DNA of 64,000 bases, from contig CAISYC010000045.1 of assembly GCA_903889565.1 (NCBI GenBank), positions 67,192 through 131,191 of the forward strand. Reading direction: 5' to 3'. This document shows, piece by piece, positions 59,671-63,647 of this stretch. The notes beneath the pieces were generated by a model. It ran no database searches. It had not been told where the DNA came from and saw only the letters and a list, made by a program, of their open reading frames with translations. Each line of letters starts with the position of its first letter. Position 1 is the first letter of the stretch. The translations under genes were made by a program, and so were the position numbers. This DNA is from an uncultured beta proteobacterium (GTDB lineage: Bacteria; Pseudomonadota; Gammaproteobacteria; Burkholderiales; SG8-41).

Positions 59671-60906
59671 CTAAAAATTTCCCTTGAACCAGTTCTTCAT
59701 GCGTTCGAGCAGACCGCCGAATGAGGTGATCTGCGCCTGCGTAATATCGTGCTGACGGCGCTCCTGCAGACCCAGCAGGAGCAGACCGACCGCGGTGGCG
59801 TGGCGCGGGTTGCGCACTACTTCGGACAAGCCGCCGTGGTACTGCGGCTGGCCGATGCGCACCGGCATATGAAAAATTTCTTCGCCGAGTTCGACCATGC
59901 CTTCCATCGAGCTCGAGCCGCCGGTAATGACGATGCCGGACGACAGCAGGTCCTCGTAACCGGAGCGGCGCAGTTCCGACTGCACCAGCGAATACAGCTC
60001 TTCGATGCGCGGTTCGATCACCTCGGCCAGCGTCTGCCGCGACAGCTGGCGCGCGCCGCGCTCGCCGATGCCCGGAACCTCAACCATCTGCTGCGGATCG
60101 GCGAGCTGCCTTAACGCGCAGCCGTAGCGCTGCTTGATATCCTCGGCATCCTTGGTCGGCGTGCGCAGCGCCATCGCGATGTCGTTGGTGATCTGGTCGC
60201 CGGCGATCGGGATCACGCCGGTGTGCCGGATTGCGCCTTGGGTAAAGATCGCAATGTCGGTGGTGCCGCCGCCGATATCGACCAGACAAACGCCGAGTTC
60301 CTTTTCGTCCTCCGACAGCACCGCGGTGGCCGACGCCAGCGGCTGCAGAATCAGGTCGCGCACCTCGAGTCCGCAGCGCCGCACGCACTTGATGATGTTC
60401 TGCGCCGCCGACACCGCGCCGGTGACGATATGCACATTGACCTCAAGCCGTACCCCGCTCATGCCGAGCGGCTCGCGCACATCGCCCTGGCCGTCGACGA
60501 TAAATTCCTGATTCAGGATGTGCAGCACCTGCTGGTCGGTCGGAATCGGAATCGCCTTCGCCGTTTCGATCACGCGCTCGACATCCTGCTGCGTGACTTC
60601 GCGGTCCTTGATCGGCACCATGCCGCGCGAGTTGAGGCTCTTGATATGGCTGCCGGCGATCCCCGTGTAAACCTCGGTGATCTTGCAGTCCGCCATCAAT
60701 TCGGCCTCTTCGAGCGCGCGCTGAATCGCGCTGACGGTCGCCTCGATGTTGACCACCACTCCCTTTTTGAGACCCTTCGAGGGATGGGTGCCCATGCCGA
60801 TCACCTCATAACCGCCGGGTCTCGCCTCGGCGACAATGGCGACGATCTTCGACGTGCCGATGTCGAGCCCGATGATCAGATTGCGTTCTTCCTTGGCCTT
60901 GCTCAT
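59671..60906 (-). CDS. ftsA: cell division protein FtsA
   Basis: Actin-fold motifs GLDIGTSKI and VDIGGGTTD. C-terminal amphipathic helix. Confidence 0.97.
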   Translation of the reverse strand: MSKAKEERNLIIGLDIGTSKIVAIVAEARPGGYEVIGMGTHPSKGLKKGVVVNIEATVSAIQRALEEAELMADCKITEVYTGIAGSHIKSLNSRGMVPIKDREVTQQDVERVIETAKAIPIPTDQQVLHILNQEFIVDGQGDVREPLGMSGVRLEVNVHIVTGAVSAAQNIIKCVRRCGLEVRDLILQPLASATAVLSEDEKELGVCLVDIGGGTTDIAIFTQGAIRHTGVIPIAGDQITNDIAMALRTPTKDAEDIKQRYGCALRQLADPQQMVEVPGIGERGARQLSRQTLAEVIEPRIEELYSLVQSELRRSGYEDLLSSGIVITGGSSSMEGMVELGEEIFHMPVRIGQPQYHGGLSEVVRNPRHATAVGLLLLGLQERRQHDITQAQITSFGGLLERMKNWFKGNF

Positions 60907-61667
60907 CCTTTTTTCTCCAGCTTCGCCGCACCACGCGGCGCACGGCCGCCCGTATCGCGCGTCTCGGCGTGTAATTCCGCAATACGCACCGCAAATCCGT
61001 TCGGATAGCGCAGGTCCGCGCGCTCGATGCGGCGCTGCAGCTTGCCGATCGTGCGCGGATAGGCGCCGATAAACCGTTCCAGGCGCGGCTCGATGTCCTC
61101 GCGCCCGAGGTCGATGGTCAGCCCGCTGTCCGCACGCACCTGCCAGGCGCGGCGCGGCGACAACTGAATCTGTACCGGCACGAGCCCCACCTGCGCCAGA
61201 TTGCGGCGAAAGAACTCGTACTGGATGGTGATTTCCTTGACGCTCTCGCGCGCGCCGACAAAGGTCATCAGCTTGCCGTCATAGGCCGCGGTGAACACTT
61301 CGCCATGCGTATTGACGAGAGCATCGGAGCCCCAGCGCGCCAGCGGCAGGTGTTCCTCAAGCACGATTTCAAGCCGGTCCGGCCACTGCCGGCGCACCTC
61401 GACCTTGCGCACCCACGGCAGGCGCTCGAACGCCGAACGCACGCGCGGCAGATTGACGGTGAAAAAATTGCCGTCGATTTCGCCGCGCACAATCGCTTCG
61501 ATCTGCTCGGGCGTCACGTGTTGCAGCGATTCGCTGACCCGCACTTCGCGCAAAGGAAACACCGGCAGGCGGACTGCAAAATGAATCGTCATATAAACGG
61601 CCATCATCAGCGCAGCGGCAAACAACGCATTGGCGACGCCGTTAAGCATGTCCGGTCTATCCCACAT
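60903..61667 (-). CDS. ftsQ: cell division protein FtsQ
   Basis: TM helix followed by POTRA (FPLREVRV...). ATG at 61667 (MWDRPDML) overlaps the ddl stop region. Confidence 0.85.
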   Translation of the reverse strand: MWDRPDMLNGVANALFAAALMMAVYMTIHFAVRLPVFPLREVRVSESLQHVTPEQIEAIVRGEIDGNFFTVNLPRVRSAFERLPWVRKVEVRRQWPDRLEIVLEEHLPLARWGSDALVNTHGEVFTAAYDGKLMTFVGARESVKEITIQYEFFRRNLAQVGLVPVQIQLSPRRAWQVRADSGLTIDLGREDIEPRLERFIGAYPRTIGKLQRRIERADLRYPNGFAVRIAELHAETRDTGGRAPRGAAKLEKKG

Positions 61668-62568
61668 GGGCGAGCTCCAGAATGCGCAGCGCCAGGTCGT
61701 CGAACGCAATGCCGGCGGCACGCGCGGCCATCGGCACCAGCGAATGCCCGGTCATGCCGGGAATTGTGTTCATCTCGAGCAGAAAGGGACTGCCGTCATC
61801 GCGCAAAATCAGATCGGCACGCCCCCATCCGCTGCAACCAAGCGCAGCGACGGCGCGCATCACCAGCGCCTGTATTGCGGCTTCCTGCGCAGCCGGCAAT
61901 CCGCTCGGGCAGTGATATTTGGTGTCATCGTTGAAATACTTGTTCTGGTAATCGTAGTTGCCCGCCGGCGCCTCGATGCGCACCAGCGGCAGCGCGCGAT
62001 CGCCCAGAAACGCCGCCGTCAATTCGCGGCCGGCGATGAACTCTTCGGCGATCACCAGGCTGTCGTGTTCGGCCGCGAGCGCATAGGCCGGCGCGATCTT
62101 TTCAACCGAGGTCACCTTGGTAATACCAATGCTGGACCCCTCGCGCGCGGGTTTGACGACCAGCGGCAGTCCGAGCCGCTGCGCCAGGGCCGTCCAGTCC
62201 GTCGCCGCCGTAATCGTTTCGCCGCGCGGCGTCGGTATTCCGCTCGCCTGCCAGACGAGTTTGGTGCGCAGCTTGTCGAGACAGAGGGCCGAGGCCATCA
62301 CACCGCTGCCGGTATACGGAATCTCCATCAACTCGAGTGCGCCCTGCACCGTGCCGTCCTCGCCGTAACGACCATGCAAGGCGATAAAGGCGCGACCGAC
62401 GCCGTCGCGCACGAGTTCGAATATTGAGCGCTCGGCGGGGTCGAAGCGCTGCGCGTCGATGCCTTTGCGGTGCAATGCCTCAAGTACGTTGCTGCCAGTC
62501 ATCAGCGAAATTTCGCGCTCGCCACTGCGGCCGCCCATGAGCACAGCGACTTTGCCGAAGTCAGCCAT
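61657..62568 (-). CDS. ddl: D-alanine--D-alanine ligase
   Basis: [17 protein letters not shown], the HGRYGEDGTVQG motif and EMNTIPGMT. ATG 62568 has a GGAGGG RBS. Confidence 0.95.
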   Translation of the reverse strand: MADFGKVAVLMGGRSGEREISLMTGSNVLEALHRKGIDAQRFDPAERSIFELVRDGVGRAFIALHGRYGEDGTVQGALELMEIPYTGSGVMASALCLDKLRTKLVWQASGIPTPRGETITAATDWTALAQRLGLPLVVKPAREGSSIGITKVTSVEKIAPAYALAAEHDSLVIAEEFIAGRELTAAFLGDRALPLVRIEAPAGNYDYQNKYFNDDTKYHCPSGLPAAQEAAIQALVMRAVAALGCSGWGRADLILRDDGSPFLLEMNTIPGMTGHSLVPMAARAAGIAFDDLALRILELAHVG

Positions 62569-62722
62569 GTGCAGCCCTCCTGCACGCACCGGTTAGGCGG
62601 CCCTGAACGCCTTCGCGGTCGCATCCCCGCACGGCGCGGCCCCTGCTCAACGCTACGGCGCACCCGCCCATTAGTACGGCCACTTTGCCGAAGTCAGCCA
62701 TGCGCGGCCTCCTTCGCGACCG
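62531..62722. repeat. diverged tandem duplication (period 133 nt) of the murB 3' end / ddl 5' end junction
   Basis: 62531-62569 matches 62664-62702 at 35/39. The flanking 20 nt (62570-62590 vs 62703-62722) are also similar, with one indel. Confidence 0.85.
62561..62701 (-). CDS. 46-codon relay ORF formed by the duplicated murB-ddl junction (translation not established)
   Basis: It starts at the ATG inside ATGGCTGA, where murB stops, and encodes [13 protein letters not shown], the same first 13 residues as Ddl. It ends in a second ATGGCTGA that contains the real ddl ATG. Confidence 0.3.
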
Positions 62723-63647
62723 GCGCGTCGCCGATAATGCGCACTTCGCGCTCGAGTTCGATGCCGTATTTTTCGCGCACGCGCAGCGCCGCAAGATCGA
62801 TCAGCGCCTCGATATCGGCCGCGCTGGCGTTGCGCCGGTTAACGATGAAATTGGCGTGCTTGTCGGAAATCATCGCGCCGCCGATCGCATGGCCCTTGAG
62901 GCCGCAGGCCTCGATCAGGCGCGCCGCGTGATCGCCGGGCGGATTGCGGAACACCGATCCGGCGTTGGGTTGGCCAAGAGGTTGCGCGGCGATGCGCTGC
63001 TCGAGCAGCTGGCGGATAATCGAACGCGATTTGCCGCCGTCGGCCTTCGCCAGCTTGAAGCGCGCCGCGAGAAACCATTCTTCGCCGTCATCCTGCAATA
63101 CGACATGACGGTAGCCGATCTCGTAATTCGCGCGCGTGCGCTGGCGCAGTTGCCCCTTGCGATCGACCGTGGTCACGCTCTCGACGATGTTCCACGTTTC
63201 GCCGCCGTAGCAGCCGGCGTTCATCGCCAATGCGCCGCCGATGGTGCCGGGAATGCCGGCCATGAATTCGGCACCGGCGCGCGCTTGATTGGCGGCAAAG
63301 CGCGCGAGCTTGGGGCTCGGCACGCCGGCCTCGGCATAGATCGCGCGCCCCTCGAGCCGGATCTGTTTGAGCGCGCCGTGCGTGAATATCACGGTGCCGC
63401 GCAATCCGCCGTCGCGCACCAGCAAATTGCTGCCGAGACCGACCAATATCAGCGGCTCGCTCGCCGGCCCCGCCGCGATGAAGGCGCACAAATCGTCAAA
63501 ATCCACGGGGAAATAAGCACGCGCGACGCTGCCGCCGGCACGCCAGCTGACGTGGCGCGCCATCGGCTCGTCGCAGCGCAATTCGCCGCGCCAGGCACCG
63601 GCGGCGGGATTGCGGGCGCCGGCTTTGGTCGGTTCGCTCATGTCCAT
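62694..63647 (-). CDS. murB: UDP-N-acetylenolpyruvoylglucosamine reductase
   Basis: [24 protein letters not shown] and AGSVFRNP motifs. Confidence 0.95.

Follow-up and report, generated by a model that had tools for sequence, protein, structure and literature searches.

Within a 64-kb (64,000-nt) stretch of an uncultured betaproteobacterial genome (hereafter the window), the minus strand carries part of the dcw (division and cell wall) cluster, and the junction between two of its genes, murB and ddl, is present twice. Our preferred reading, which we hold at roughly 70%, is that a copy of a dispersed, strand-specific, structured repeat (about 75–80 nt) was inserted after ddl codon 13, along with a duplication of about 55–59 nt of the ddl initiation region, i.e., the Shine-Dalgarno sequence (SD), the ATGGCTGA overlap of the murB stop with the ddl start, and the first 13 codons. 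Five lines of evidence support this directly: the anatomy of the insert, its membership of a family with covarying structure, the polymorphism of the site among relatives, the conservation of a relay reading frame, and purifying selection on the spare ddl start. A broader proposal, which we put forward tentatively and at slightly less than even odds, is that the element belongs to an undescribed family of mobile, structured, translated intercistronic repeats in soil and groundwater Betaproteobacteria. Such a family would target stop/start overlaps and initiation regions, including those of essential cell-wall and division genes, its relay open reading frame (ORF) would preserve operon expression, and the spare 13–15 codons left at ddl and murC would be held by selection.

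The window sequence and its ORF list give a minus-strand gene order of murC (3' end), murB, ddl, ftsQ, and ftsA. A sequence-only reading of this DNA had reported that the murB-ddl junction occurs twice, 133 nt apart, and we find the same: the exact 21-mer CATGGCTGACTTCGGCAAAGT is at 62682-62702 and 62549-62569 (exactly two occurrences, with 0 expected in shuffles), and it sits within a 46-nt direct repeat (62531-62576 vs 62664-62709) that is 87% identical at a spacing of 133 nt. That reading had also described a 35/39 match between 62664-62702 and 62531-62569 in which the four mismatches (62548, 62545, 62542, and 62539) are third bases of ddl codons 7–10 and synonymous throughout. This is correct (the codon pairs are GTC/GTG, GCT/GCC, GTG/GTA, and CTC/CTA), and a fifth wobble difference lies just beyond the compared interval, in codon 13 (GGC vs GGG, 62530/62663). 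We call the upstream, duplicated ddl start copy A and the real start copy A'. Copy A opens a relay ORF, whose 46 codons and AAHG-TGA ending had already been recognised. Its ATG is 5 nt upstream of the murB stop (TGA, 62696-62694), in the ATGGCTGA that holds that stop, and its own TGA (62563-62561) follows AAHG in the second ATGGCTGA, so that the relay ORF ends at the eighth base of ddl.

The nature of the spacer between the two junctions becomes visible when the window is set against relatives with an empty site (L203-L206, 93% Ddl identity), which read ...GCAAAGGAGGTCGCGC-ATGGCTGATTTTGGAAAAGTTGCTGTGTTAATGGGGGG-CCGCAGC... at this point. Relative to them, the window has the native SD and murB end, then copy A, then the rod and tail of the element, then a second SD segment, and finally copy A'. 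The native SD lies at the same position as the ddl SD of those relatives, the duplicated segment runs from the SD through codon 13, and the element follows immediately after that codon. The second, diverged copy of the murB end and SD reads GTGCAGGAGGGCTGCAC and has been reshaped into a 6-bp hairpin. The earlier suggestion that the whole spacer is a decayed murB 3' end therefore holds for the last ~20 nt (the SD and the AAHG codons) but not for ~80 nt, which match a repeat element at 69.2 bits. Because most of the spacer is one copy of a mobile repeat, we read the event as insertion of an element with duplication of the ddl initiation region. The GTGCAG/CTGCAC hairpin that had been proposed to hold the ddl ribosome-binding site is present (arms 62585-62580 and 62574-62569, with GAGGG in the loop), it appears in the minimum-free-energy (MFE) fold, and one relative (L201) carries a variant with one compensatory change, GCGCAG/CTGCGC. 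The ddl SD itself, AGGAGG, is at 62581-62576, 8 nt upstream of the ddl ATG.

Features of the murB-ddl junction in the window (aa, amino acids)
Feature	Positions	Strand	Remarks
murB	62694..63647	-	317 aa; ORF list; Pfam FAD_binding_4 and MurB_C on the identical protein from same-species contigs
Native SD, AAGGAGG	62708..62714	-	within the 3' end of murB; the relay ORF now uses it
Copy A (duplicated ddl start, 13 codons)	62663..62701	-	heads the relay ORF; repeat analysis
Relay ORF	62561..62701	-	46 codons and stop; ORF list
Rod of element	62605..62663	-	59 nt, four helices: P1 (GTGCGCC/GGCGTTC), then inward P2, P3 (GCA/UGC), and P4
Conserved core	62618..62647	-	AGCAGGGGCC(N9)GGGGATGCGAC; sole match in the window
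Element 3' tail	62586..62604	-	AGGGCCGCCTAACCGGTGC; weakly conserved; homologous tail kept in the L213 remnant
Second murB-3'-end/SD segment	62569..62585	-	hairpin GTGCAG-GAGGG-CTGCAC; homologous to native GCGAAGGAGGCCGCGC
Copy A' (real ddl start, 13 codons)	62530..62568	-	aligns with the N-termini of relatives' Ddl
ddl	61657..62568	-	303 aa; ORF list and comparison with relatives' Ddl

Direct repeats of this kind call for an assembly check, as the sequence-only reading had advised. The 125-nt murB-ddl gap is identical in 16/16 contigs read that encode the same Ddl, and the insert is also found, with two bases differing, in two assemblies from other samples (L207 and L208, Ddl 99% identical). 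The duplicated junction is therefore not an assembly artefact. A promoter and terminator scan of the region found none, and the relay peptide of the window is absent from called proteins and gave no candidates in the protein database.

The first hint of a family came from a more distant relative, the Burkholderiales metagenome-assembled genome L016, whose insert shares the blocks GAGCAGGGGCC and GGGGATGCGACCG with that of the window. A 1-nt indel separates the two blocks and places them in different reading frames, which pointed to conservation at the nucleotide level. Scanning metagenomes with AGCAGGGGCC-N(8-13)-GGGATGCGAC then gave at least 133 matches on at least 120 contigs, often two or three copies per contig and between unrelated genes (here and below, counts on metagenome copies are among the matches listed). 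Aligning 37 copies of the window-like subfamily gave a covariance model that matches 62592-62671 at 69.2 bits (E = 3.3e-16). This is the sole copy in the 64-kb window, where the exact core, relaxed regular expressions, and the covariance model all gave no further one. A literature search with the core motif, on both strands, returned only unrelated primer sequences. The family is large and apparently undescribed.

Comparison of murB-ddl junctions in relatives, also suggested by the sequence-only reading, shows the site in empty, single, nested, and remnant states. Among 80 genomes of Ddl relatives the junction is single in all but L016 (Ddl 69% identity), which has a diverged unit: a homologous insert at the same codon, 70% identical over 171 nt (E = 9e-13), with an element copy scoring 79.8 bits in the covariance model. 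In closer relatives, the site is empty in L203-L206 and L209-L212 and holds one unit in L207 and L208, as in the window. L201 has a window-type unit with a 135-nt element nested in the P4 stem, and L213 and L214 keep only a deletion remnant, i.e., the tail and SD hairpin. The remnant is a 42-nt spacer (L213:3959-4000, same coordinates in L214) with neither rod nor copy A; murB has also lost its final 8 codons there and stops early in a GCATGAGC motif. This state appears to derive from a filled site by deletion. The nested element of L201 (L201:3771-3962) belongs to a second subfamily, which has a rod and a GGGCGCGC...GGTCAGATCCC module, and starts directly after AGCAGGGG. Since the state of the site varies in this way among relatives, the ddl insertion is old and has been repeatedly lost or remodelled.

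As a separate observation, a nested arrangement like that of L201 recurs in four metagenome copies (L097, L110, L114, and L115), so the L201 nesting may represent a composite family rather than a one-off insertion.

The same element is found at other junctions of the cluster. Between murG and murC, a copied murC start (MKHKVKKVHFVGIGG...) comes first, then the element, then the real murC start, with units in L002, L004 (two units), L008, L013, L203, L206, L209, L210, L213, and L214; this site holds zero, one, or two units among relatives. Contigs of ERZ1426842 and ERZ1426847, which encode a Ddl identical to that of the window, have two consecutive 48-aa ORFs between murG and murC, with 4-nt overlaps with their neighbours, i.e., the window's organism has two relay units there, just beyond the high-coordinate end of the window. 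At ftsQ-ftsA, a related dcw cluster (L160, FtsA 85% identical) has an ATGA-type copy exactly at the overlap of the two genes, between two ATGAGCA sequences. The corresponding window junction, GGATGAGCAAGG (60901-60906, minus strand), is an ATGAGC stop/start overlap and is empty. In ~37/82 metagenomic copies, a long sense ORF stops at a fixed position in the 5' arm of the element.

Two side observations concern these relatives. The L002 contig (CALQCM020000032.1) is a betaproteobacterial dcw cluster with a Ddl 81% identical to that of the window, and its Chitinophaga pinensis bin label is probably wrong. In L211 (L211:381-515), a 44-aa ORF that lacks a recognisable core begins in an ATGA shared with the ftsW stop and terminates 11 nt short of murG; it could be another type of relay ORF or a product of chance.

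The spare ddl start has kept its coding sense. All seven sampled copies of the 39-nt start (A and A' in the window, L207, and L201, and the single start of L203) encode the same 13-aa peptide, and 21/21 pairwise comparisons among them contain synonymous differences only. Third positions of the window and L201 have diverged by 0.27 over four genes, and copy A differs between them at 3/13 wobble sites but at 0/20 unconstrained non-wobble sites, where 5.4 differences would be expected (P≈0.002). From P1 to the ddl ATG (62604-62570, 35 nt including the tail), 8/35 positions differ, near the neutral rate. Copies of the murC start behave alike: differences at first, second, and third codon positions number 6, 0, and 34 for A vs A between lineages, 6, 3, and 30 for the real starts (A' vs A') between lineages, and 2, 1, and 27 for A vs A' within a genome, where up to 10/15 wobble sites have changed. 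Parsimony on the A copies gives 14 synonymous and 5 non-synonymous changes, with ~75% non-synonymous expected under neutrality (P≈9e-6), and all differences in the four least-diverged pairs (18/18) are at third positions.

The sequence-only reading had remarked that wobble-only change beside heavy decay is not what neutral decay predicts. The codon-position tests bear this out more strongly than it was stated, rejecting chance or neutral decay with P between 4e-6 and 9e-6. Frequent conversion between A and A' is rejected because the wobble sites are too diverged, and a recent origin because A/A' wobble divergence equals or exceeds that between lineages. Non-synonymous changes do occur in some older A copies (L016 A and L004 A1), and the CTA at 62672 is a recent change in the window's copy A, with L207 and L208 keeping CTC. 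We conclude that, in most lineages, purifying selection acts on the coding capacity of copy A. If a spare start is under protein-level selection, then the N-terminal peptide of the relay ORF, or its codons, would matter for re-initiation, for the fate of the peptide, or for persistence of the element.

Homologous recombination could produce a similar pattern, if copy A were repeatedly overwritten by functional ddl starts of empty-site strains or if A and A' stemmed from two diverged functional alleles, brought together on transfer of the insert between lineages. Presence of the insert is polymorphic among lineages that differ at 22–29% of third positions. The upstream copy in L016 resembles the native start of its relative L017, and the downstream copy has another length, two codons shorter. 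The murC copy A of L203 and the sole functional murC start of L201, its sister lineage, differ by 1 nt. Against this, no real start has the derived states (GGT GGG) common to the murC A copies, and the L209 copy A is nearer to other A copies than to any sampled real start, so copy A is old and separately inherited, neither recently imported nor homogenised. The extent of wobble divergence between A and A' also argues against homogenisation, and the ddl insert, as the L213 remnant shows, is older than the split between the lineages of the window, L201, and L213. We consider recombination unlikely as the explanation of the wobble pattern, although it keeps real weight: exchange between lineages may contribute alongside insertion, and refresh of copy A from empty-site alleles is possible at ddl, where the sample is small.

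Another line of evidence is the structure of the element, which is best seen in the 37 aligned copies. All seven P1 pairs covary, and at one P2 pair, 17 copies have G-C, 13 have A-U, and 7 have G-U. Paired cells make up 97% of the total, compared to 25–49% when partners are slid, and there are 65 double-change cells vs 15.9 in shuffles (a value reached by 0/500 shuffles). G.U pairs (~23) far outnumber C.A pairs (3), so the fold belongs to the mRNA-sense strand. Two unpaired stretches, GGAGCAGGGG and GGGGAUGCGACC, are invariant, and the internal loop varies, with GTAG being one variant beside GAAG, GGAG, and GAAA.

This architecture also suits a different explanation, in which the rod is a domesticated cis-acting RNA (for processing, stability, or protein binding) whose function accounts for its spread and conservation. 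The invariant unpaired stretches flanked by covarying helices, the strand-specific G.U pairs, and the position on the sense strand within operons all agree with it. However, Rfam 15 gave no match at E up to 1 in the window region or at the element positions of 10 canonical-copy loci, and the element behaves as a mobile repeat does, with insertion polymorphism, nesting, tandem copies, and a presence at many unrelated junctions. The window copy even has a pair-breaking change: 62637 is G where L207, L208, and the family consensus have C, and this C-to-G change breaks a P4 pair. We find this explanation improbable as a replacement for the insertion reading, with which it is in any case compatible.

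Two further observations on structure stand apart from this argument. Nine element-bearing loci (L086, L093, L098, L107, L112, L122, L126, L171, and L176) have CCGGGGTCGCATCC ~55 nt downstream of the core. This is the reverse complement of the core sequence GGATGCGACCCC and follows many window-like copies; it could form an alternative structure by pairing with the rod's 3' strand, or be the inverted terminal motif of a longer composite element. Another element-bearing contig (L128:873-1248) has a sub-threshold match to the cspA thermoregulator (48.7 bits, gathering score 78), which is unrelated to the element.

The relay frame is a further line of evidence. In 11/11 start-duplicating units, the ORF opened by the duplicated start is closed by a stop that overlaps the real start (ATGA, TAATG, or ATGGCTGA). 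These units are those at ddl in the window, L207/L208, L201, and L016 and those at murC in L002, L004 (two), L008, L013, L203, and L206, and they amount to eight structurally distinct units with six period lengths (77, 133, 143, 155, 158, and 268 nt), each of which satisfies the frame rule for its own stop geometry, with a 1/3 chance per distinct length. At ddl, the relay ORF is 46 aa in the window and L207/L208, 48 aa in L016, and 91 aa in L201, where the nested 135-nt insert is a multiple of three and stop-free, giving a single bridging ORF. Elsewhere, 26/35 ATGA-type copies have a 36–38-codon ORF that ends in a second ATGA, vs 1 and 6 in the shifted frames; in those 26, the second ATGA is preceded by GGAGGCGGCGGC and overlaps the ATG of an ORF of at least 80 codons. 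The murC relay ORF was found as 11 protein clusters, all exactly 48 aa even though the tail is variable. The core is read as SRGR/SRGP at ddl, as EQGP/KQGP at murC, and as GAGAP in other copies, i.e., in different frames, so it is openness and frame that are conserved and not the peptide. The sequence-only reading had offered either a recombination scar or a translational relay; this comparative evidence supports the relay, but a simple scar does not fit a spacer that is a mobile repeat.

We propose the following working. Copy A would keep the native coupling geometry between murB and ddl, now opening the relay ORF. Ribosomes that finish murB would re-initiate on copy A and translate the element, melting the rod and the ddl-SD hairpin as they pass. 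Having terminated 5 nt into ddl, they would start again at the true ddl ATG. The element could thus reside in an essential operon at little cost, as has been proposed for the interspersed repetitive units of mycobacteria (MIRUs).

How the element arrives can be approached through its target sites. At murC, the native sequences GGCGGCATGA (the murG/murC junction) and GGCATGAGC (codons 17–19) match the 3' end (GGAGGCGGCGGC-ATGA) and 5' end (GGCGGCATGAGC) of the element, respectively. For ddl, the match is between the murB end, AAGGAGGCCGCGC, and element 3' ends of the type GGAGGCCGCG. In 11/26 ATGA-type copies the downstream gene starts with ATGAGC, like the element. Because native sites match the element ends and ATGAGC is shared, integration through short homology at two sites fits, and one possibility is that the interval between the sites is duplicated when they lie in reverse order. 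In the ftsQ-ftsA copy of L160, ATGAGCA is the sole duplicated sequence, and at some sites the flanking repeats are 39–71 nt. Long direct repeats of host sequence also flank copies elsewhere: L157 (3300-3560) has a 71-nt repeat of a gene 3' end on the opposite strand, and L125, L140, and L117 have repeats of 23–26 nt, so long flank duplications are not limited to gene starts.

Several points weigh against our preferred reading. We infer relay translation and the coupling of ddl to murB purely from conservation, and ddl still has an SD of its own, from which initiation might be enough without the relay. Stops are few in GC-rich DNA, which makes an open frame by itself weak evidence, and shared descent among many units leaves fewer independent cases than loci. 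A model of pure ribosome delivery does not predict purifying selection on copy A. No transposase or mobilising function was identified, in an analysis that included no search aimed at mobilising genes, and the ATGA-type copies show no copy-specific target duplication, their flanks being a shared consensus (9.7 vs 9.0 matches of 20). The window rod is slightly degenerate, with one P4 and one P1 mismatch. Finally, when folded as the sequence-only reading had suggested, the region yields the SD hairpin in its MFE structure but is no more stable than shuffles (z = 0.42; z = 0.78 for the window rod), so the structure is visible only by comparison.

Some of these same points favour a purely selfish element, with an incidental relay ORF, ddl translated from its own AGGAGG, and an open frame that is a by-product of GC content and descent. 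The window rod also shows relaxed constraint: of 9 differences from L208 over 5,050 nt, 2 are in the 133-nt insert (62637 and the CTC-to-CTA change in copy A). This account struggles with the relay frame: the correct frame recurs in 11/11 units across six periods, the L201 nested insert is both stop-free and a multiple of three, the true frame is coupled in 26/35 listed copies vs 1 and 6 for the shifted frames, and murC relay ORFs stay at 48 aa in 11 clusters despite the variable tail. We therefore regard a purely selfish element as a poor explanation, although not a negligible one.

Two remaining explanations can be dealt with briefly. The first needs no mobile element: the junction was simply duplicated in tandem and then decayed, or it was scarred by recombination with a diverged dcw cluster. 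This would account for the 46-nt repeat at spacing 133, for the resemblance of the final ~20 nt ahead of ddl to murB's 3' end, and for the L016 copies (A like the L017 start, A' two codons shorter), which are as expected if the downstream part was imported from another lineage; but it is very improbable and already refuted as a complete explanation, since ~80 nt of the spacer match a family on at least 120 unrelated contigs at 69 bits, those matches are not murB fragments and are flanked by unrelated genes, the same element is at murC and ftsA starts elsewhere, Tandem Repeats Finder gave no match (and so no period-133 array) in 62300-63000, and neutral decay is rejected by the codon positions (18/18 third-position differences; 14 synonymous vs 5 non-synonymous changes, P = 9e-6). 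Hardest of all to credit is that some Ddl molecules have copy A as their true N-terminus, with ribosomes bypassing the element or one period being precisely removed from RNA or DNA: copy A is selected as strongly as the real start ([6,0,34] vs [6,3,30]) and both copies end in matching GGC GGN codons, but these codons match only through the duplication, the putative take-off codon is followed by TGC and not by a stop (unlike a T4 gene 60-type bypass), 133–143 nt is far beyond known bypasses (that of T4 gene 60 is 50 nt), older A copies decay (L016 and L004 A1), and a TAA in the ddl frame 24 nt upstream of the real ATG blocks joining by frameshift, for which reason frameshifting from the relay frame into ddl is rejected as well.

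If the insertion reading is right, it has practical as well as biological consequences. The direct repeats created by these units can confuse assembly and start-codon annotation, and the units create small ORFs that are annotated inconsistently (the window relay ORF is uncalled and the murC relay ORF is called). The empty, single, nested, and remnant alleles in close strains are a natural test bed for termination-reinitiation coupling. They also present a redundant-looking gene start held for a long time by purifying selection, for which neutral decay, gene conversion, and recent origin do not account.

Among known systems, repetitive extragenic palindromic (REP) sequences and bacterial interspersed mosaic elements (BIMEs) are similar in being dispersed, strand-specific, hairpin-forming intergenic repeats of operons that are often clustered. 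REPs are single imperfect palindromes of ~20–40 nt with a conserved GTAG head, and no coupled ORF is known from them. The present element, in contrast, is a 59-nt four-helix rod rather than a single palindrome, and its GNAG loop is variable. Small non-autonomous repeats in or near genes also include the Correia elements of Neisseria, which are miniature inverted-repeat transposable elements (MITEs), and the Rickettsia palindromic elements (RPEs). RPEs are tolerated inside coding regions, and the host protein takes them up in frame; the present insert leaves its host protein intact and makes a relay ORF apart from it. Unlike MITEs, the element has no terminal inverted repeats beyond the 7-bp P1 and no short target duplication of fixed length.

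Short upstream ORFs can deliver ribosomes by termination-reinitiation through overlapping stop and start codons, as a 2025 review describes (PMC12548453), and passing a ribosome to the next gene is the sole role proposed for them. Such ORFs are locus-specific leaders, whereas the short ORF here is carried by a mobile, repeated, structured element. The closest analogue, judged by architecture and not by any MIRU consensus, is the mycobacterial MIRU. In the review passage that treats them, MIRUs insert at start codons, and the MIRU ORF is coupled to the gene with a -4 nt spacing, presumably minimising the cost of insertion (PMC12548453). Both are short repeat units on the sense strand inside operons, and in both the ends of the ORF overlap the flanking stop and start codons, an arrangement thought, in the same passage, to preserve expression (PMC12548453). 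Copy number varies between strains in both, here with zero, one, or a nested pair at ddl and zero, one, or two at murC. The element thus shares with the MIRU class its location at co-oriented operon junctions (murB-ddl, murG-murC, and ftsQ-ftsA), a stop/start-overlapping ORF, and presence polymorphism, and the family apparently works like MIRUs.

It also departs from MIRU-type behaviour, first in belonging to another phylum (here Betaproteobacteria, Burkholderiales, judging by the Ddl relatives). Its RNA or single-stranded-DNA rod is conserved, with four strongly covarying helices and invariant loops, and at ddl and murC a 39–57-nt duplicate of the host gene's start, itself under purifying selection, heads the relay ORF; the review passage on MIRUs mentions neither feature (PMC12548453). 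If the reading is true, a MIRU-like strategy operates in Betaproteobacteria inside the essential dcw cluster, and making a mobile repeat harmless through a ribosome-passing ORF of its own is not a mycobacterial oddity.

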